A DNA stretch of 62,262 nt, the filler included, from Basidiobolus ranarum (Eukaryota), in NCBI GenBank assembly GCA_040143965.1. It is 31 parts of 31 records of this genome, joined end to end, with 100 filler letters (N's around TTAATTAATTAA, not from the genome) between each part and the next. Parts side by side here need not be neighbours in the genome. Positions count along the whole stretch, not along the records: positions 60,359 to 62,262 come from JASJQH010004116.1; 30 more parts are not named here. One strand, written 5' to 3'. Made by a program: the position numbers and the translations under genes. Below the pieces are notes generated by a model. It did not search any database. It saw only the letters and a program-made list of their open reading frames with translations, and was not told the DNA's origin. Positions 4,224 to 62,262 of this stretch are shown here, piece after piece. Every line of letters begins with the position of its first letter. Positions within the stretch are counted from its first letter, which is position 1.

Positions 4224-5096
4224 TTAGCTGGCCTGATCTGGCTCAATAAAATGGAACAAGTCTACTACTTTGCCTAACTTTGATTGAGGCCCACAAAATG
4301 ATTTTCCTCTATACTTTCCTGCTACAATGCTATATTTCTTTAGGAAACCAAAGCTATGTTCTACTCTGGCTCTAAAATGGGAAAAAATGTCATTATAAAG
4401 CTTTTGCCTCTCTGTGAGTATCCCTCCTCTGGGCCTCTTGTTAGCAGTGACACATCCTAGCCTTCTGCATTCTTCCCCAACATATGCCAAATCAGCCATA
4501 GTCTTCTCATATCTTACAAATGGTGCATGCCTCTCAACCCAAAGCCTTTTGTCATGGTGTCTCCCTGGATGTGGCCCACTAAACCAAATGATGTTTCCTT
4601 CCAAATCTGTCAAAGCCTGGAACTTTACACAGTGGGCTTTGTACTTGCCAGAATAGAATAGCTTTTGGTTGCTTTTGGGCCTGTTAATTCTGACTGGAAA
4701 TGTGTCAAGAATACTTCTGATATGAACTCTATTGGGAAATACTCCAGGAAATGGAAGGAAATTAGAGTCTCTAAATCTTTTGTCCCAGGCATCTTCAACA
4801 TCATTCATCACTGAAGCTAGATAATTCTCACTTACTTGAAGCCTGGTATGGAAGCTTCTCCCACTTTTGCTACCATTAATAGTGCACTGAAATCTGATTG
4901 GACAATAGTTTTTGTAGTAACAAAACAAATTGACTAGCTGCTTTCTGGTAGGTATTGGAGTATATGAGCCACAGTATTTCTCAAATATAGCCTCTAGGGT
5001 GGTGATAGGAAAGCCAGTAGTTGCTTTTGGATTAATGAGGAATGACCATTTAGAGTAGATGGAGAGCATGATATTAATCTTGTATTGAGCTGGCAC
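4224..5096 (-). mobile_element. PIF/Harbinger/IS5-like DDE transposase (DDE_Tnp_4 type); ORF open but C-terminus replaced at a junction near 4263
   Basis: Motifs ILDTFPVRINRP, YSGKYKAHCVKFQ, SGPHPGRHHD, MADLAY, YNDIFSHFRARVEHSFGFLK. Confidence 0.85.
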
Positions 5097-5543
5097 GATA
5101 CTGATTGATCTGGCGTGCGCAAGTTATTTATCTAAGAATTTCAATTATCATGGTAAAATTCCCTACATTCTGTATAATAAAATTTCTGTTTGCATTTATT
5201 ATCCTAATTATTTCAATTATGTGTAATTGCATGGAAATTATATAATAAACTGCATCAGCAAAGTTAATCATAGTTTGATCCAAATCAATTTATTTAGCGC
5301 ATATATTGAAATGGCTCAAAGCGGAATGCATTATGCTTGATCACACTATAGGAAATTAACTTCAACACTTTAACCAATAATATAAAAAGATCCCTAATTC
5401 TAATTGAGACCAATAAAGTCTAACATCATAGATATATATGGTAGTTACATATCATGTCAAAGCAGATTCTTCCGGATTTGCAATCTACTTTGGTACAGGA
5501 AACTGCCACTTCCAAAATTTTGTGTGTGCAGTTGAATTAAGGT

Positions 5544-19770: not shown

Positions 19771-20303
19771 GCAAAGGTCGTTTCACGAATACATGTTTGA
19801 TATTGAGTACTTAAACTATTTGTATAAATAATCTTACATGCTGAACTACAAGTAAATAAAATCATCCTTGTTCAATCCATCCACTCCCAAATCCACAATT
19901 AGCCCATCTTTAGACCTTTGTGGGGGAAAGTTCCAATCACAAATAGCTCGAATATGAGATTGAGTTTTAATGTCCTTTATTTTGAAAAAGAGATTGAGCG
20001 TGAGTATGTTAGATCATGAACTCGAATCAAATTCAAAGAAATGCCAATTTAATGTATCGTTAATGTATCGNNNNNNNNNNNNNNNNNNNNNNNNNNNNNN
20101 NNNNNNNNNNNNNNTTAATTAATTAANNNNNNNNNNNNNNNNNNNNNNNNNNNNNNNNNNNNNNNNNNNNTCCAGACTTGATTATATCTTTTTTCTAATC
20201 TTGATTATCCTTTTAAAATACCCCAACTTGATTATATCTATCCCAAACCTCCCCCCCCCACTCTATCCTTGAAATTATACCCTAATCATCTCACATCCCC
20301 AAT

Positions 20304-20984
20304 TTAAGGATACCATACAATCGGCAACACCCCCATCTCGTATACTAACATCTCATTCGCCCTTATAAATATATTACTCCCCTCCAACCCTTTCCCCGAC
20401 ACATTCTTCCCCCCCACATGAAATACTTTTATTAAATACTTCGACCCAACGCAATCCGAAAAATTTACCGCATCCTTCCCCATTAATATCGTTACCATCT
20501 TCCCACCCCTCCGTGAATATATATATCCCAACAACTTCCTCGTAAACTCTTCCCATAATACTCTATGGTTCGCCAAAAACTTATCACAGTTAACCCCCAC
20601 CGTAAATGCAACACTTATCAAAAATACCCCCTGTGATATCCACTGCTTACACATCTCTCTCGGTTCCGGCTCTTCCACCCCATACTCCCTCCCTACCTCT
20701 TTCGCAATTAATACCGTGTCTAATGGACTCTTTATGCACCCCACCGACGGCATTAACGCCACCCCCGACGCAAACGCTACTCTCGTTATACTGCACTCCT
20801 TATCATCTGGCGCATCGCTTAATATTACCACTTTTATCTCGTCCGGCCCCATCAGTCTCAACATCCTAAATACGTCCCTCTTCTTCGGTAATACTTCCAA
20901 ATTTGACTCCTTTAACGTCTTTGCTATCCTTGCCAATATATCCCGATTCTTCTCGAAAAACTCTTCCCATCCCTTAATCATCAT
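20304..20984 (-). CDS. Uracil-DNA glycosylase family-1 fold protein with degenerate active site, probably viral
   Basis: Scaffold motifs retained (P..DVF, IKVVIL, AF, W.SQGVFL, NH..LWEEFT, GSNIF..AN..L, PIVW), but GQDPY is SDAPD, LLLN is FLIS and HPSPLS is HVGGKN. No introns. Confidence 0.8.
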   Translation of the reverse strand: MMIKGWEEFFEKNRDILARIAKTLKESNLEVLPKKRDVFRMLRLMGPDEIKVVILSDAPDDKECSITRVAFASGVALMPSVGCIKSPLDTVLIAKEVGREYGVEEPEPREMCKQWISQGVFLISVAFTVGVNCDKFLANHRVLWEEFTRKLLGYIYSRRGGKMVTILMGKDAVNFSDCVGSKYLIKVFHVGGKNVSGKGLEGSNIFIRANEMLVYEMGVLPIVWYP

Positions 20985-21348
20985 GAACTTAACTCCTACG
21001 CCAATTCCCCCTCAAACTTCACCCAAAAAAGATCTCTCTGTTGAAGATACCTATACAAAACTTTACGTCCAACAACTTATAGATAACAATCAAACCGATG
21101 TCCTCGTCCAACTCGGTATTATCTCCAACTCCGAAACAAACAAACCTCTCCCCTATATATTAAATTCTATCAAAAAGTTTTTTGACACTAATAAACCCGA
21201 ACAACCCACCCCTGACCAAAATAACGCCACCTGCAAATATTGCGGCCATAACAACGTCCTCGTCCGAGAATATCAACTCCGCTCAGCCGACGAAGGAAGT
21301 AATTTAGTCCATGAATGTATGAACTGCCATAAAAGTTGGACCGTATAA
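20983..21348 (+). CDS. TFIIS / RNA polymerase subunit M (Rpa12/Rpc11/Rpo30-like) C-terminal zinc-ribbon protein, 121 aa, probably viral
   Basis: CKYC-x(9)-QLRSADEG-x(6)-CMNC-HKSW. The likely start is the ATG at 20983; the upstream part of the 210-aa ORF is antisense to the UDG gene. Confidence 0.85.
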   Translation: MNLTPTPIPPQTSPKKDLSVEDTYTKLYVQQLIDNNQTDVLVQLGIISNSETNKPLPYILNSIKKFFDTNKPEQPTPDQNNATCKYCGHNNVLVREYQLRSADEGSNLVHECMNCHKSWTV

Positions 21349-21423
21349 ATTATCGAATCTTTTCCCCTTTTTAAAAATTCAACCTTAATACTACACTTCT
21401 GCACCAATTCCTATTTCTTCACA

Positions 21424-22084
21424 ATGTCGGGATTTGTAGCCGAAAGTTCTGTCTCCTACGACCTATATAGTCTATGGATGGACAAAGTCGAACTTTTGAC
21501 CCAAGTCTATTATGACGCCGTCTCCGATGTTGTTGGTTCTATCCTTCCCGATTCCAAGAAATGTTTTGTCTATGAAGATGAAGACTGGATCGTTCTCTTC
21601 TTCCCCTTAATCCCCCATAACGGCTTCGTAATGGCTAACCTCTTACAACGTTTCGAACATGACGATGAAACTTTTATCCACAAAATTATTCTTGAAGACC
21701 TCTTAGATGAATACGGTGATCTTCTCCCAGTCGCAGTACTCCCTGACGAAAACTTATCCACTTTCTTATCTGAATATCTCAACGTTTCCGTATACCAAGA
21801 TTTCTGTCTTGATGACGTTACCTTGGAAGATCTCTTTCACCTTCATATCATCCCTCCTCCCACTACCGATTTCCCTCTCCAAAAAATCCCATTGTACCCC
21901 ATCCTGGAACAACAAAATGTCGACCGGTACATATTAGGTTACGTTATGTTCTTAGATGTTCTCCCCGATTCTCACCCACAAATTAACACGCTTAAAGGTA
22001 TGATTAAACATCTAGTCGCCAAATCTGGTCACCTTGAACCTATTTATGAACAAGATGGTATCCGGTCTATCGACTGCACCAGAT
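21424..22084 (+). CDS. Acidic hypothetical protein, 3'-truncated by the contig end, probably viral
   Basis: Uninterrupted 220-codon ORF starting 75 bp after the TFIIS-like stop. About 37 D/E versus 12 K/R by hand count. No recognised motif. Confidence 0.75.
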
Positions 22085-40291: not shown

Positions 40292-42200
40292 CCTCTGGGC
40301 TCTATGCTAAACTTGAGAAATGTGGATTTGATCTAGCTCCAGATGAATTCTTTGGATATAACATCAGCCCATCAGGGATCTCCATGGACCCAAAAAGGTT
40401 GAATCTGTTTTGTCTTGGGATATTCCAAAGAATGTGAGGGATGTCCAATCTTTTCTTAGATTTGCAAACTTTTACCAACAGTTTGTCAAGAACTACTCCA
40501 AAATACCTGCTCCATTAACAAACAGTACAAAGAAAGAACTCCCATTTGACTGGAACCCATCTTGCCAACAAGCATTTGTAACTTTAAAGCAGGCTTTTAC
40601 CTAAGCACTAATCCTGGCACATCCCAAGCTGGACAAGCCATTTATTGTTGAAACTGATGCATCTAACCTTGCTCTAGGAGCAGTACTATCATAGTTTGAT
40701 GATGAAAACTTACTGCACCCTATGGCCTTTTACTCAAGAAAGTTCTTGGCCATAGAAATCAACTATGACATCTATGACAAGGAACTATTAGCAATTGTAG
40801 CTGTGTTCAAACAATGGCAACAATTCTTGGATGGAGCAAATCACAAAATCACAGTTTATTGTGATCACAAGAATCTTCAATATTTTAGTACAACCAAATT
40901 TCTCAACTTTTGTCAAGCAAGATGGTCATTATTTCTTGCCACTTTTGATTTAGTGATTACATATTGACCAGGTATCCAGCAAGGAAAGCCTGATGCCTTA
41001 TCACATAGAGTAGAATATCAGCCTGAAGAAGGGGATGAGGCCTTTGGCCAACAGAATATTTCCATACTGAAGCCCCACCAACTTCAAATTAGTGCAACTG
41101 CCCTTTCTCTTCCTAGTTCAAGCACATTGCATCAAAACATCCGCAAACTCCAATCTGAGGACCCATTGGTAATATCAATCAAGAAAGCCCAGGAAACACC
41201 CAGAGACCTCTGAAGCATGAACCTGTACTGCCATTTCTCTGTCATCAATGATCTCTTGTTTTATAAGAAGTGCCTTTACATTCCAGACCACACTTCCAGA
41301 CCACACTTCCAGACTCAAAATCATGCAAGAAAGACATGACTCACCACTGGCAGGACACTTTGGTGTTGCCAAATCATATATGTTGGCATCCAGTGATTAT
41401 CGGTGGCCCAAAATGTTTGCATTTGTCAAGACTTTTGCTCCCTCCTGTGATACATGTGCCCAAGTGTAGACTCCAAGATATCAGTCTTATGGCCTCCTAC
41501 AGTCACTTCCAATTTCTGATCAGCAGTGGAAATCCATATCCCTGGATTTCATAACTGATCTACCCATAACTGCCAAATACGATTCAATTCTGATAATTGT
41601 CAACCATCTAACAAGGATGGCCCACTTTGTGGCCTGTAACAAGTCAATTGATGCAAAACAAACAGCAGAATTGGTAACTCAAAACATCTTCCACCTACAT
41701 AGACTCCCTGAAACTATCATTTCTGACCGAGGACCTCAGTTTGCTACCAGATTCTGGAAAAGTCTCCTTCATGCCTTGGGTATCTTTGCCAATCTCTCTA
41801 CTGCTTTCCATCCCCAATCTGATGGCCAAACAGAAAGAGTCAATCAAGTTTTGGGACAATATTTGCAATGCACTATCAGCTACAATCAGGATAATTGGAC
41901 ACAACTCTTGCCTCTTACTGAATTTACTTCCAACAACTCTTATGATACCTCAACAAAGCAAACTCCTTTCTTTGCAAATTATGGATTCCATCTTTGTTTC
42001 ACAATTCACCCACTATCCAATCTTCCTTGCCCTGCTGCCTCAGACCATGCCACTTTCCTTAAGGACATCCATAAACAATTAATATCCAAGTTGGAGCATG
42101 CTCAGTCCCACTACAAGAACTTTGGTGATAAGAAAAGAAAGCCAAGCCCAGATCTCAAGCCAGGAGATTATGTTTGGCTACTCCAAAAAAATATCAAAAC
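40292..42200 (+). mobile_element. Ty3/gypsy (Tf2-like) pol relic: RT end, RNase H, integrase
   Basis: ETDAS, AFYSRK..EINYDIYDKELLAIV, HDSPLAGHFG..CDTC, ISDRGPQF, HPQSDGQTERVNQ. Several stops and frameshifts. Confidence 0.93.
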
Positions 42201-42300: not shown

Positions 42301-44208
42301 ACTCAATCAGGCATACACATTACTCCTATCCAAATACAATACTAAACTGCATGATTTTACCATCAAGAGCCTTGTCAGATTTCAACATAATCACTGATAC
42401 CAATTCACCAAATAGTTAGTATAATATTAAACTTGGTAATGGCAGTAAGCCTACGTTTATATTGCTAAAGGGGATCAGCTGGAGCCAGAGCTTCCCTTTA
42501 GGCACTATGCACTTACTGTTAAACAACTTTCCAATACTACTTACTCTGCTATGTGGTGAAAAATTTAATATGAATGAGCCATTCAAGATAGAATCAAAGA
42601 TTAAATCAATTGGGAAAATGCTTGAAAATATCAAGGTTCAACCATATTTTACTAGGACTACCATCTATGTCTACTCATCAAAGTGTTGATTCAAATATAA
42701 TAAATGAAAGTACTGTATTTGTATATATTCAAGTGGAATCTTGAAAATACTTCTGCCTGACAAGTATGATAAAAATGTTTAGGTGATTTGGAAGTGTTTT
42801 GGACAAGATTTGGATTTGTGAATTGGACACTTAAGCTTCATTAAATTGAATATGTCTGATTTATAGCTTACTGTGAAATAGAACTCTTTGACATGCTTAG
42901 ATAATGAAAAACGTGCCTGGTAGGCATGGGTGAAAATATGAGATGATTTGGAGAAGATTTGAGATAATAGTGAAAATTGGTAAAAGTGATCTGATTGATA
43001 TTTATATCAATTAGAGCAATTAACACATTTTTCAAATGACAAAATTGAGTACTAAATAATCAGAATATGAATAAACTAACTACTAAATAATGAGTTGCTA
43101 TTTACCTAATTTCCACATTCCCACTCAACTAATTATTTAATATTTCTCTTGAATCTAACTTATATGTTAATAAGTCAAGTTGTGCTTTAGCTTAAGATTT
43201 TGGTAAGATGTCAGCTATCATTTCTTTAATAGGGCAATAGACAAGTTCAATTATATCATTCTATATTGCTTCTTTAGCAAAATGATTCCTGATATCTATA
43301 TGTTTTGTTCTAGCATAAAATGTACTGTTTTTAGCTAATGAAATACCACTTTGATTATCTTCAAGTACAGTCTAGCATGTTTTTGAATGTATCCTTAGTC
43401 TGTAAATAACTTCCTTAACCACATATCTTCTGGTGTAATAGCAGAGGCAGCCATATACCCTGCTTCTGTAGTGGAAAGCTCTATGGTTGGTTGCTTCTCA
43501 TTATTTTAACTTATGGCTCCATAATCATAGAGAAAAGTGTACCCATTTGTTGACCTTCCATCATCAAGATTTCTTCCCCAGTCTCCATCACTGTAGCCTT
43601 CAAAATTTTGGGCATCAAGAGTGACAGAGTATTCTAGAACAAGATCTGAAGCAACTCTCAAATACCTGAGTATTTGTTTTACTGCAGTTTTGTGCTTAGA
43701 TTCAGGATTTTTGAGAAATTGGCTGACAGTTCCCACCACCACAGCAATGTCTGGACATGTTTCAACCATTGTATACATTAAGCTAGCCACCATGGATGGA
43801 TAAGGGAACACTTGGCTTTGATTTGAGTTATTTTGGGTCAAATTGGATGAAATTCTGATTAATTTCATATTGGGATCCATTATTGTTGATACAGGCTTGC
43901 TATTCTCCATGTTGAAGTGTTTTAGAATATCATGGATATATCCAGAATGATTCAGCATTACTTTCAGATAGTGATTATCTCTTTTGATTTGGATTCCTAA
44001 AAAATAACTTAATTCACCCATATCAGTCATCTGTAATTGGTTTGTTAAGCAGCTTTTTGTCTGATGAAGTGCTTTGAGATTACTTGTGGCTATGATCAAA
44101 TCATCCACATATAGTGCCCAGAAAGGATCCTATTTCCAGTTGTTTTGCTATATATACTGTGACTTACTGTGCATTTGGAATACTAGTGATTCCAAATAGG
44201 TATCTATC
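42301..44208. mobile_element. CACTA transposase fragment (+, 42301-42765), copia B LTR (-, 42767-43117) and copia RT/RNase H (-)
   Basis: 42301-42480 matches 3770-3939. Copia motifs YVDDLIIA, MTDMGELSYFLGIQI, GYSDGDWG. Confidence 0.85.
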
Positions 44209-56349: not shown

Positions 56350-58254
56350 GGAAGGTTGTAGAATAATCCAGAAAGTCATGGAATGTTCCGGCAAAATCAA
56401 GTTTTGATTGGTCAAAACTCAATCAATCATCAAATATTCCAAGAATCTTGTGGAATGTTCCGGAAGATTGTAGAATTTTCCAGAAAATAATAGGGCTAAT
56501 GTGGGTTAATACTGATAAATCTGAAGTAATGGGTGATAATACTAATAGTGTGATATGATTGGCTAGAAAATATTGGTAAGTCAGATAAGGATAATAAAAT
56601 AGAAATTGTGTAATAGTAATGATATGAGCTCGGAGTGGAAATAAGTCAACCTGCCAGTGGGTAGCAATGCTACCCCACTACATCCACCCCCCTCTGAATT
56701 TTGAACTCAAGTGAAAAACCAAACTCAGCAGGTTGAGTTATTTCCTCTTGTCTTGAATAACTTTAGTCGGTTCCCTGCAACTGGTAGTCTGAGTTCTGTT
56801 CCATCTAGTTCTGCAGTGTAATAGCTTCCATTACCAACAACCTTAACAATTTTGTATGGGCCTCTCCATCGGTTGTCAAACTTCCTGCTCCATTGTTTGT
56901 CAAGAGTGGAATCATATTCCAGGACAAGGTCATCAACTTGTAGTGGCTTAGGTCGGAGGGGATGGCTTTTGTCAAAGTAGTCCTTGTTAGCATTTCTGGC
57001 TTTCTTCAGTTCTTCAGCAGCTTTTTCTACATCAACATGGTGTCGGTCAATTTGGGCTATCCTGTTGATGAGAAGTTCTTCAGTGGTCATGTTAGTTTTC
57101 CAGTTTAAAGTGTTCCAAGTTGTGGCTTCAGTTTCAATGGGAAGGATGCATTCTTGTCCATAAATCAGTCTGTAGGGTGACATTCCAGTTGTTCTCTTTG
57201 TAGTGATCCTGTCAGCCCATAGTGCTAAGTGTAGCTTTTGTGGCCAAAGTTGTGATTTGCCTTGGCAGGACTTGACTATTGAGTTCACTAAGGGTCCATG
57301 CCCTCTCTCTATCATCCCATTTGCCTGTGGATGATAAGCTGTGGTGTGTGCAATATGTATGCGATACTTCAAGCAGAGGTCCTGGATCAGCTGTGACATC
57401 ATCTCTCCTCGGTCAGCAGTGAATTGTCCTATAGTTCCATATCGGCAAATAATATCTTCAAAGATGAACTTCCAAACTGTTTCTGCTTTGTTGTTAGGTA
57501 GAGCTCTGGCTTCCACCCAACCACTAAGGTCATCTCTGGCAACAACAAGATATTTTTTGTTGCCAGCTGTAGGCATATGAACAAGATCAATTCCCACCTT
57601 CTGCCATAGTGTTGGTACATAGGTGGGATAAAGTGGTTCCTCGTATCTTTTGGTAGATCTCCTTTGGCATGCATCACATGTCTCCACATATGATTTGATA
57701 TCCTGATATTGGTTGGTCCAATAGTATCTTAGTGTTGAGTTCTTGAAGGTAGCCTCTCTGCCACGGTGTCCTCCTGGCTCTCCTTCATGGATCTCTTTAA
57801 TGATCTTCTGCTTTTCTTTAGAATCAAAGATGACTCTTCTTGGTACTTGTCCTGTCTTAACCCGCTTGAAAAGTAGTCCATCCCTTACAAGAAAGTGATG
57901 GGCTTTCCTCCTGAGATTTCTGAATTGCTGGGGATCTAAGGTGTAGGGTCTCTGTAATGTAGTCAAATAATGGATAATATCGCTCCATTCTTCAGGTATA
58001 GGGGTACTGATAGAAACTTGATGTATGTCGGCATCAAGGGAGTCTTCAAAGTTCTCATCAAAGTGTATTTCACCAGGTCTTGGTCCCATTCTTGATAGTC
58101 CATCTGCAACAACATTTGTTTTTCCTGGTATGTGTACTACTTCAAAGTCAAACATCTTGAGCCAAGCCATCCACCGGTTGGTAGCATCATCTGGTAGGTC
58201 TGGTTTGTTGATCATCCCAATAAGTGGTCTTGCATCTGTTTCAAGTATGAAGTG
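56350..58254 (-). mobile_element. Ty3/gypsy element: open RNase H end and integrase (stop at 56725), PPT (56683-56694) and 3' LTR (from 56682)
   Basis: HIPGKTNVVADGLSR, HHCC zinc finger, D-D-E (GIDL, ADRG, NGMIER), GPY motif. PPT GAGGGGGGTGGA then TGTAGTGG. Confidence 0.93.
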
Positions 58255-59760: not shown

Positions 59761-60358
59761 AGTGAATATGTTTTGTCGAACCTAAGCTTCATGTGTAGTC
59801 TTTTATATTGATAGAGACGGATAAATTTAGAGGACTGTCTATTCGAATATGGACTCACGTTAATACATAATTTAGCTGCTCGTAAGTCCACTAAAAATAG
59901 AATTTAGTACCTGCCTATCTATCTTCGCTGTTTAACTCTACAGTTCCACCAAATACGCCTCACTTTTATCACTTGAAGTTTGGAGGATTCTCAACTACAA
60001 ATGTTGCAGAGCGGAACTTCACCTGACAGAGTCGTTCATTTAGAAGTTACCTATATCTTAATTGTAGGCTAACTTTGATGTCACTTGAAGTAGAGAACTT
60101 AGATTGCTATGAGTAAAGGTAAGTTCGTAGCTCATTACAAATTGAATACATCTTGGTCGGACAGGCGTTGGTGACACACCCATGTCATTAACCCTTAATA
60201 TTCGAAAACCACCCAGCGAGTGAGCCGCGTAGGTGCACAGCTTATAATGTAGTACAGGNNNNNNNNNNNNNNNNNNNNNNNNNNNNNNNNNNNNNNNNNN
60301 NNTTAATTAATTAANNNNNNNNNNNNNNNNNNNNNNNNNNNNNNNNNNNNNNNNNNNN

Positions 60359-61925
60359 TAATGTCACTTCTACGATCACCTCTTCCCGAACTCCATTGAT
60401 GGCCATGTAAATGAAGTACATGAGTTTCAGTCACACCAGTTTCAACCACTCGGAACCTTACTGGATCACCAGCATAAGCACGGAAGACTGGGGTTGCTGG
60501 ATCACCAAATAGCCAGCTAGAGTGATGCTGCTCTTCACCGTTAACATTCGTCACTTTCCCTTCTCTGATCATTCTCCAGAGCGCTAGTTCACGATTTTTC
60601 ATCGGTTCAGAGCGATAGTTGAAAATATTGACGATAGGTGTTCCTGTAGTATTTGCTCCTGTACATGGGTCAATTGTTGGAGCGCGGTTGTTCTGAATTG
60701 CAACTCTATCTTGGAAGAATAGGGTGAATTCTCTGAATGGACAATCAGGATGAGAGTGTTGATCTTCTTCGGCATAGAAGTCATGTCTTTTTGGGCATCC
60801 TCCGTTTAAGGGATAAGGATGAATATCCACATGTATACCATCTACAGTTGGTTTTCCTGTGGTCGGGTCAGTCCAGAGAGAGCCTCTTGGCTCGACAATA
60901 ATGGCTCCAAATAGCCCATGGACTACAGTACCTGCTGGAGAGCCATCGTAAGAGCCACCATCAGAGATCAAGTAAGTTCCTTCCTTCAAACATGGCCATG
61001 TATATTCTATCACTTGACCTGAATTGAGTAAACTAGTAGGGTTACTTCCTACTGCAGTACCATCGCTCTTGATATCATACCCATACAGATATGGGTGCAT
61101 TCCAACCTCACGACCTTGAATATTGTTAGTGAATTTGACATGAAGTTTATCGCCTTGATTACAACGTAGCACGAGTGGTTTCACTAGAGGATCCATAGGT
61201 AGAGCACTAGAATTCTGACTCAAAAGTCCCAAAATGTTGTCACGATAATTGCTGAGATGTTCAAGATTCTCCTTCAAAGCAAACATGGCACCGTTGGCAT
61301 CAAAATCACCCCATGAGTTCATTACAATAGGCATAGGAATCGCTGCTACCTCGTAGAGACGAGTTTGAGGGACTAGTCTTTGTTTCATATCCGATCCACC
61401 TCGGCTATGAGTAGTAGCTGATTTACGACCAGTGGTAGCAGAGCTGCGATGAGGAGCAACATAGCCGCGGTGAGTATTAGCAGATTTACGACCAGTGGTA
61501 GCAGAGCTGCGATGAGGAGCAACATAGCCGCGGTGAGTATTAACAGATTTACGACCAGTGGAAGCAGAGCTGTGATGAGGCGCAACCTAGCCGCGGTGAG
61601 TATTGGCAGATTGTTGATGAGTGGTAGCAGTGCTGCGATGAGGGGCAACATAGCGGCGGCGAGTGATAACAGGGCTGCGATGAGGAGTCACATGGCTGCG
61701 ATGATGGGTCACATGGCTGCGATGGGTGGTAGCAGAGTTGTGATGAGCGATAGAAGAGCTGTGATGCTTCCCTCTCGATTTTCGACCTCTAGAATGAGAG
61801 CCATGACTTCTGTGGGCCGAGACATCTGGAAGGAGCAGACTTATTAGTAGTAGCACCAGCAACAAGTATGTCCAAGATGATGCCAATTGGTCGGTACTCT
61901 TTGATGATCGCTTCTTGAACATCAT
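60359..61925 (-). CDS. MnxG-like large multicopper oxidase with N-terminal signal peptide and His/Arg-rich repeats; one in-frame TAG (61587-61589); 3'-truncated
   Basis: GDFDANG, PLVLRCNQGD, SDGTAVG.N, HGLFGAIIVEP.GS.WTDP.TG, NYRSEP..NR, GEEQHHSSWLFGDPATP..RAY.GDP, ETHVLHLHGHQW. ORFs 61587-61925 and 60303-61388 share one frame. Confidence 0.82.
61420..61730 (-). repeat. Coding tandem repeats: four 63-bp units (RGYVAPHRSSATTGRKSANTH) plus 21-bp units (HRSHVT[H/P])
   Basis: 63-bp units start at 61420, 61483, 61546 and 61609. Confidence 0.9.
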
Positions 61926-62262
61926 GGAGCGACACCAGTATATACTCGAGCTGATAAGATTGAGTTGGAATGCACCTCATCTTATATGCTGCTAAAGTGT
62001 TAGTATTATTAGGATTGTTTCATGTTTTTTGACTTGAAAATATGAGGGACTTTAGCTTTAAGAGTTTGTATACGCATATAAACTTTAAGTTACGTATAGT
62101 TGAAACATACAACGTGTCAGTTTCAATCAAATCATATCTATCCAGGTAGTTAAGGCTTACGGATCCTTGAATTTGAAACTTTAGAGGGAATATTTGCCAT
62201 AGACCTGGTTGTTTGACTATCGTATCGGCGCATGACCCAATCAGCAATATCTTTACCAGCAG

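Follow-up and report, generated by a model that had tools for sequence, protein, structure and literature searches.

The last contig of a 62,262-base stretch of DNA from Basidiobolus ranarum (assembly GCA_040143965.1; the whole stretch is called the window below) carries, on the minus strand at 60360-61388, the 5' third of what is probably a fungal gene for a multicopper oxidase of the MnxG type, obtained long ago from a non-Firmicute bacterium and fitted afterwards with a secretory leader. The kind of enzyme is known, the host group is unexpected. To judge from their sequences, Basidiobolus and a few soil chytrids may secrete a metal-oxidising enzyme that descends from bacteria.

From 61388 to 60360 the minus strand is open for 343 codons (MKQRL...RRSDI), which are colinear with relatives over cupredoxin domain 1 and most of domain 2 of a six-domain, MnxG-like oxidase, and are cut by the contig end. 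A reading made earlier from the sequence only had reported 343 intron-free codons with a series of six motifs, and translation confirmed both the count and every motif (GDFDANG, PLVLRCNQGD, GSLWTDPTTG, NYRSEP, GEEQHHSSWLFGDPATP and ETHVLHLHGHQW). Coordinate 60359 is the end of the contig and not a boundary of the gene, which continues past it for about 960 codons, with 9 of the 12 copper ligands among them. The remainder of the gene is not in the window, where five Basidiobolus proteins used as tblastn queries match 60360-61460 only. In the alignment, the stretch of protein found just past the contig end is identical in four Basidiobolus paralogues, a likeness that may explain why the assembly breaks there.

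Enzyme family and copper ligands

Two Pfam profiles match the product above their cut-offs, Cu-oxidase_3 (23.3 bits, cut-off 21) and Cu-oxidase_2 (22.0 bits, cut-off 20.4), and place it in the multicopper oxidase superfamily. The best match among PDB sequences (phmmer) is MnxG of Bacillus sp. PL-12 (9bxa_A, from the Mnx complex with MnxE3F3; E 2.1e-95), residues 10-335 of the query corresponding to MnxG 3-293, or domains 1-2. The query also matches, more weakly, MnxG 447-736 and 835-1146, which are the second and third two-domain units. Two-domain laccases follow at E about 1e-9. Beyond these, laccase, Fet3 and ceruloplasmin chains are absent from the 57 PDB sequences found at E <= 1, and ascorbate oxidase appears at 0.025. 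An AlphaFold2 model of the fragment, built on a 53-row alignment (predicted local distance difference score, pLDDT, 85; predicted template modelling score, pTM, 0.86), retrieves 9bxa_A first in Foldseek (E 2.9e-24, TMq 0.71, 34% identity); the runner-up has E 2.9e-8 and TMq 0.36. In sequence and in predicted fold alike, the window protein is thus classed as an MnxG-like multicopper oxidase. The sequence-only reading had assigned it to the MnxG type rather than to fungal laccases or Fet3, and the phmmer and Foldseek values bear this out. Membership of the fungal laccase/Fet3 group or of the ceruloplasmin group was considered and ruled out by the rankings of PDB sequences and of Foldseek matches.

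MnxG of strain PL-12 is the closest match of the window protein in sequence and in fold. Its threefold two-domain internal repeat is common to the fungal protein, and the same ligand columns are found in full-length fungal relatives. In contrast, identity is only 34-41%, the fungal and Firmicute clades are not sisters, and the fungal gene is eukaryotic and nuclear, whereas Bacillus MnxG is encoded by a gene of a spore-coat operon. Two-domain laccases, such as Streptomyces SLAC, feature a second-domain motif, H-x-x-H-x-H-G-H-x-W, found also in the fungal protein, each third of which resembles one two-domain laccase unit. Small laccases measure ~280 residues and are trimeric, while the fungal protein is made by three fused units and has the full ligand set in one unit only. 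Fungal laccases and Fet3 (three domains), as ceruloplasmin and hephaestin (six domains), are secreted copper oxidases with a cupredoxin fold, like the members of the window family. Ceruloplasmin also has the same number of domains. All these oxidases have a different evolutionary origin, and chains of the factor V/VIII type match the fold model at TMq 0.36 only.

The nearest full-length relatives, the Basidiobolus proteins P0001, P0003 and P0004, measure 1,336-1,342 residues. Of 88 columns regarded as invariant in fungi (identical in at least 13 of 14 fungal rows), 87 are kept in the window protein, the sole change being Leu for Phe at residue 325; all 31 family-wide columns (at least 90% identical) are kept as well. 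Copper-ligand columns have been traced on a 129-row alignment and are numbered here as in P0001. Domain 2 contributes H384, H387, H389, H437-C438-H439, H443 and M448, domain 3 contributes H648, H650, H694 and H696. Each column is conserved in 13-14 of the 14 full-length fungal rows, in all 17 Firmicute rows, and in at least 87 of the 95 other rows. The window provides the first three columns only, all within ETHVLHLHGHQW (60393-60428, minus strand). This is the H-x-x-H-x-H of domain 2, and includes one type-1 and two trinuclear His ligands, or 3 of the 12 canonical ligands; the roles (type 1 or trinuclear) have been assigned from the pattern of two-domain laccases, which presumably applies here.

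Distribution and descent of the fungal proteins

A protein search with the window fragment gave 1,502 matches to longer proteins, the best 120 of which were listed. The top seven belong to B. ranarum and B. meristosporus CBS 931.73 (84, 83, 75, 73, 65, 57 and 57% identity). The chytrids Borealophlyctis and Rhizophlyctis supply one row each at 44% identity; the best bacterial row among the 120 is at 41%, and bacterial identity does not exceed 44% across all comparisons. An exhaustive search of representative proteins (1,323 matches at E <= 0.001) identified P0121, a 224-residue B. ranarum fragment 91% identical to the window protein. A profile (A1) was built from seven fungal proteins, and the best 120 rows were again listed. 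Twelve fungal proteins lead, with at least 1541 bits, all other listed rows scoring at most 1317, and none of these other 108 rows stands under a eukaryotic name. The profile added a second strain of Rhizophlyctis rosea, Powellomyces hirtus (795-kb contig), Spizellomyces punctatus (1.47-Mb contig) and Fimicolochytrium jonesii (460-kb contig). Two unlabelled rows have been identified as a second Fimicolochytrium and a second Borealophlyctis paralogue.

Among the matches listed, the family resides in Basidiobolus and in six chytrid species, which we take to belong to the orders Spizellomycetales and Rhizophlyctidales. An acquisition private to this one fungus, as the sequence-only reading had it, does not agree with the six chytrids of two orders. 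Nor does the protein group with a widespread eukaryotic cupredoxin family, which had been named as the finding that would overturn that reading; Basidiobolus and chytrids are the only eukaryotes listed. The fungal contigs that carry homologues measure 83 kb, 128 kb, 460 kb, 795 kb and 1.47 Mb. Three named paralogues have been found in B. meristosporus and five in B. ranarum. Two of the B. meristosporus paralogues (P0003/P0005) are both reported from a contig of 83,466 bases, and two of F. jonesii (P0135/P0136) from one measuring 459,799 bases; a single contig may carry both members of each pair, perhaps as tandem copies.

Bacterial relatives are numerous. A scan of prokaryotes, with one genome per species, identified 543, and the best 80 of the 543 are all 34-38% identical to the window protein. 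These 80 span Cyanobacteria, Alphaproteobacteria, Myxococcota, Bacteroidota, Actinomycetota and many Clostridia, and since identity is uniform across so many phyla, the donor cannot be named. Several loci of the same kind (L013-L079) reside in gut Clostridia, either isolates or metagenome-assembled genomes (MAGs), where MnxG-like six-domain oxidases are common (Lachnospiraceae, Ruminococcus, Oscillospiraceae, Anaerostipes, Faecalicatena). These carriers are strict anaerobes, in which a manganese oxidase reducing O2 is unexpected. A metagenome scan with the window protein returned 53 pattern matches and 0 relatives.

For tree building, 392 oxidase proteins were reduced to the 286 measuring 1,000-1,700 residues, and these to 126 by greedy thinning on shared 5-mers; the window fragment and two Basidiobolus fragments bring the total to 129. 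In the FastTree phylogeny (129 rows, 1,163 columns) all 17 fungal rows form one clade, located inside a large clade of non-Firmicute bacteria. An IQ-TREE phylogeny was obtained from 53 rows and 1,213 columns under LG+C20+F+G4, by posterior mean site frequencies (PMSF) and a short search, with Firmicutes as outgroup. The fungal clade has support 100. Its sister is a 19-row clade of bacterial and metagenomic sequences from several phyla (support 95), named members of which are a Rhodospirillales MAG, an Oculatella cyanobacterium, Pontibacter and a Propionibacteriales MAG; Firmicutes lie outside. Non-Firmicute MnxG-like oxidases (Alphaproteobacteria, Cyanobacteria, Actinomycetota, Bacteroidota, Myxococcota) are the sister group of the fungal clade in both trees. 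They are similar in size to the fungal proteins (1,270-1,450 residues) and feature the same ligand set, but are 34-38% identical, again among the best 80 of 543, and have short N-termini. To our knowledge, none of them has been tested biochemically.

Within the fungal clade the branching order is (chytrid B,(chytrid A, Basidiobolus)), with support 99 in the IQ-TREE phylogeny, and the Rhizophlyctidales and Spizellomycetales rows of chytrid A stand apart from each other. The window row groups with P0121, P0001 and P0002 (support 96), within the Basidiobolus clade (support 100). Alternative arrangements were compared by the approximately unbiased (AU) test on 24 full-length rows and 1,170 columns, with LG+F+G4 and constrained fast searches. 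The topology joining chytrid A to Basidiobolus is the best. Monophyletic chytrids are 40.3 log-likelihood units worse (p 0.0009), and chytrid B joined to Basidiobolus is 106.4 units worse (p 1.6e-5).

The position of the fungal clade, nested in bacterial diversity, fits an ancient transfer from a bacterium to a fungus, whose direction and timing we infer from the trees. Horizontal transfer, proposed from the sequence at the outset, therefore stands in its general form; an origin from the Bacillus/Firmicute MnxG clade does not, as this clade lies outside. Tabima et al. 2020 (PMC7466969) count 2-5% of the genes of Basidiobolus as transfer candidates, 61% of which are intronless. The MnxG-like case therefore fits a pattern already described.

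The N-terminal region and the in-frame stop

Upstream of the enzyme part, and in the same frame, an ATG at 61925 opens 37 codons (61815-61925, minus strand; MMFKKRSSKSTDQLASSWTYLLLVLLLISLLLPDVSA) which, as read from the features of the translation, encode a predicted signal peptide. The n-region has K4, K5, R6 and K9. The h-region, WTYLLLVLLLISLLL, forms a hydrophobic core of 15 residues, and the c-region, PDVSA, places V at -3 and A at -1. In the alignment, this hydrophobic core recurs in five Basidiobolus relatives (P0001-P0004, P0121), closed by (V/I/A)S(A/S) and followed by a short variable linker and by the conserved M-(K/R)-Q-R-L which marks the start of the enzyme. Comparable leaders are predicted in chytrids. 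Spizellomycetales homologues appear to have short classical signal peptides at the N-terminus, Rhizophlyctidales homologues a basic stretch followed by what looks like a hydrophobic segment of transmembrane length. The fungal proteins have putative secretory extensions of 45-80 residues at the N-terminus, missing in Firmicute proteins. The median length ahead of the conserved core is 65.5 residues for Basidiobolus, 59 for chytrid A, 11 for the bacterial sister clade and 4 for Firmicutes. The chytrid B protein P0136 of Fimicolochytrium jonesii has a Cys-rich N-terminal region of ~200 residues, linkers rich in Ser, Thr and Pro, and a C-terminal hydrophobic tail, a layout that by sequence is the architecture of a eukaryotic cell-surface protein around an oxidase of bacterial type.

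Signal peptide and enzyme part are separated by a linker of 142 codons (61389-61814, minus strand; GC 53%), rich in Ser (25), His (23), Arg (20) and Thr (18). About 105 linker residues are an insertion unique to the window copy, absent from the five Basidiobolus relatives in the alignment. A repeat search found here a 63-nt tandem repeat (61408-61664, minus strand; 4.1 copies, 89% matches), encoding units of 21 residues such as SATTGRKSANTHRGYVAPHRS. One unit contains an in-frame TAG (61587-61589, minus strand) where the three other units carry TAT (Tyr). The TAG may be an error of sequencing or assembly, or a real nonsense mutation. An intron removing it was considered and is unlikely: a formal 63-nt GT...AG segment (61587-61649) is in frame, though GTTGCC makes a poor donor and every repeat unit shows the remaining features as well. 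At 61385-61847 the repeat opens also other frames and the plus strand (88 and 132 codons, Leu-rich or rich in Arg, Ala and Met); by composition, these frames look like by-products of the repeat and not like genes.

Because of the TAG, 60359-61925 cannot be taken as one continuous coding stretch, as had been supposed. The signal-peptide-like stretch noticed in the same frame does begin with a same-frame ATG, but the stop lies between it and the enzyme. A secreted fungal protein is suggested by an N-terminus conserved in Basidiobolus and paralleled in chytrids, the window copy itself being interrupted.

Origin and function weighed against the alternatives

In the explanation held probable here, the contig would come from a fungus of the Basidiobolus lineage, close to B. 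ranarum, and carry the 5' third of a nuclear gene which encodes a single-chain oxidase of the MnxG kind with six cupredoxin domains. The gene would have moved once, long ago, from a non-Firmicute bacterium into a fungal lineage, and the secretory N-terminus would have been added later, as a signal peptide in Basidiobolus and Spizellomycetales and as a signal anchor in Rhizophlyctidales. A duplication in the ancestor of Spizellomycetales and Rhizophlyctidales would have produced the two chytrid paralogue lineages. Basidiobolus would have received its copy from a source like chytrid A, or have kept it by vertical descent accompanied by very many losses, and would have multiplied it later. In the window copy, the linker following the signal peptide would have grown into the His-rich repeat that carries the TAG. 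By homology, the mature enzyme would be a four-copper oxidase, either extracellular or at the cell surface, a location suggested by its leader. Single electrons would pass from the substrate to type-1 copper in domain 2, and from there to the trinuclear cluster at the interface of domains 2 and 3, where O2 would be reduced to water. By analogy, the likeliest substrate is Mn(II), giving Mn(III/IV) oxide, a tentative assignment coming close to even; Fe(II), Cu(I) and phenols are the alternatives.

Several observations weigh against this explanation. The contig measures 1.9 kb and is unlinked, and the window itself offers no link between it and fungal DNA. Of the 12 copper ligands it encodes only 3, and the in-frame TAG separates the signal peptide from the enzyme part. 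The NCBIfam equivalog for MnxG, NF041487, has a cut-off of 3100 bits, and the scores are 62.4 for the fragment and 192-233 for full-length fungal proteins; a Bacillus albus homologue taken as control scores 347 bits, also below the cut-off, and hence this 1,894-position model does not extend to the Bacillus type and is uninformative as a test of membership here. The trees have no independent root, this being assumed among bacteria, the branches of chytrid B are long, and the model used in the AU test is site-homogeneous. Function has been assigned to the fungal clade and its bacterial sister clade by likeness of sequence, and 'manganese oxidase' names at JGI are annotations of this sort. Finally, Basidiobolus is absent among the 120 matches listed for a gypsy-type frame located on another contig of the window (see below).

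That the contig derives from a bacterial contaminant, a possibility raised by the sequence-only reading, is now extremely improbable. The family is overwhelmingly bacterial, as the 543 relatives in the prokaryote genome collection indicate, the contig lacks linkage and exceeds the other 30 in GC, and the region has no intron. Yet the best bacteria are 41-44% identical to the window protein and Basidiobolus proteins 83-91%, the N-terminal extension with its signal peptide is of the Basidiobolus type and is not found in bacterial relatives, homologues reside on fungal scaffolds of up to 1.47 Mb, and the window row falls inside the Basidiobolus clade in both trees. The GC content at third codon positions of the enzyme part is 0.329, similar to that of the other open reading frames of the window (0.33-0.49). 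By all these sequence comparisons, the gene is a resident fungal one. Another alternative is an old eukaryotic or fungal gene, inherited vertically since before chytrids and zygomycetes split and lost almost everywhere, with no transfer into or between fungi. In keeping with it, the fungal proteins form one clade with deep internal branches, chytrid A splits by order as expected from taxonomy, and the nearest bacteria are just 34-38% identical, so that no donor is obvious and any transfer must be very old. It is nevertheless improbable. No eukaryote besides Basidiobolus and the six chytrids is found among the matches listed, although the database includes EukProt-sourced proteins, and with Firmicutes as outgroup the fungal clade is nested in bacteria and not sister to them. 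Placing Basidiobolus after the duplication that separated chytrids A and B further demands the loss of B in its lineage, and of both copies in all other fungal phyla.

Two other alternatives concern the product. The window copy could be a dead paralogue, in which a real TAG removes the signal peptide, the protein starting from the Met at 61388 is cytosolic and is not loaded with copper, and the family lives on through other paralogues. The stop stands where three sister units of the repeat have TAT, the repeat is expanded only in the window copy among six Basidiobolus sequences, and the three paralogues of B. meristosporus and five of B. ranarum would make the decay of one copy tolerable. The enzyme part argues otherwise, having neither stop nor frameshift in 343 codons and retaining 87 of the 88 fungal-invariant and all 31 family-wide columns. 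Moreover, a consensus error, or alleles or paralogues mixed together, could account for a single T-to-G change in a 63-nt repeat of so small a contig, and the formal GT...AG segment would take out the stop in frame, poor as its donor is. Decay of this copy is thus possible, but rather unlikely. More plausible, if still short of probable, is a secreted multicopper oxidase acting on something other than manganese, either a ferroxidase, a cuprous oxidase or an oxidase of phenols or pigments, engaged in spore-wall cross-linking or metal detoxification. Multicopper oxidases shift substrate readily. The lone biochemically characterised relative, Bacillus MnxG, is 34-41% identical and belongs to a bacterial subclade different from that of the fungal clade, and the His-rich linker (23 His in 142 residues) could bind various metals. 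On the other side, the fungal proteins have motifs in common with MnxG beyond the copper sites, and the sole functional anchor of the family is Mn(II) oxidation by Bacillus MnxG, as described in PMC13689576.

Bacillus MnxG oxidises Mn(II) to MnO2 in a complex capped by MnxE3F3, and the need for partners of MnxG proteins outside Bacillus is described as open in the same review (PMC13689576). The most far-reaching version of the transfer explanation, unlikely as a whole, is that Basidiobolus, Spizellomycetales and Rhizophlyctidales have a working Mn oxidase, a single chain of six domains which dispenses with MnxE and MnxF, is exported by means of the signal peptide added in fungi, and lays down Mn oxide on walls or spores. 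From bacteria the gene would have passed to a chytrid ancestor, been duplicated, moved from chytrids to Basidiobolus and expanded there into paralogues, the window copy having gained a His-rich repeat able to capture metal. Fungal Mn oxidation is ascribed to three-domain laccase-like oxidases, to Mn peroxidases and to superoxide. If correct, an MnxG-type enzyme would add a fourth route, of bacterial type, and provide a eukaryotic, secreted and possibly partner-free version of the enzyme, of interest for biomineralisation and bioremediation. Two sister chytrid orders and Basidiobolus, together with the AU rejections, would also make a compact test case of an old transfer from bacterium to fungus followed by a possible one from fungus to fungus.

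Members of the fungal family are public already as 'hypothetical protein', 'Cupredoxin' or 'Copper oxidase'. A literature search found no paper describing MnxG-like proteins in Basidiobolus or chytrids, and this small family of Basidiobolus and a few soil chytrids is apparently undescribed. Tabima et al. 2020 (PMC7466969) and Ciach et al. 2024 (PMC11291939) treat horizontal transfer in early-diverging fungi, and the words copper, cupredoxin, manganese and laccase have 0 occurrences in either main text; supplementary gene tables, which are outside this check, may list the genes.

According to the map of N runs, the window is made by 31 separate contigs, sorted by size from 1,920 down to 1,904 bases and joined by artificial spacers (44 N + TTAATTAATTAA + 44 N). 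The oxidase gene lies on the last, an orphan contig of 1,904 bases (60359-62262). The spacer preceding it (60259-60358) implies no physical linkage to the previous contig, and the gene is not linked to any other DNA in the window. Since the contigs are unlinked, any finding resting on neighbours across a spacer is void, and on an orphan contig arguments from neighbouring genes or operons carry no information. The lack of an adjacent operon gene, invoked in the sequence-only reading, therefore says nothing. The AT-rich upstream DNA mentioned there is real, as the 5' flank (61926-62262, minus strand; 337 bases) has 36.5% GC and, by frame translation and composition, no convincing gene, but in an isolated contig this context is uninformative. 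The GC content of the whole contig, 44.6%, is the highest of the 31, the remaining contigs ranging from 32 to 42%.

Other contigs of the window carry remains of eukaryotic transposons. A gypsy-type integrase frame of 496 codons (Integrase_H2C2 + rve) is located at 56728-58215, on the minus strand of the contig 56350-58254. In a protein search its best named match is from Smittium culicis (49%), which fits a zygomycete-like fungus and is not decisive. Remains at 4227-5123, 41470-42200 and 43509-44129, on separate contigs, correspond to a DDE_Tnp_4 (Harbinger/PIF-like) transposase, an integrase core and a copia-type reverse transcriptase (RVT_2), respectively. The contig 20171-22084 shows a strong GC skew (-0.458 in the bin 20001-22000), and contains an open frame of 308 codons with a TFIIS-type zinc ribbon (E 2.8e-11) at its end; another long open frame comes next.

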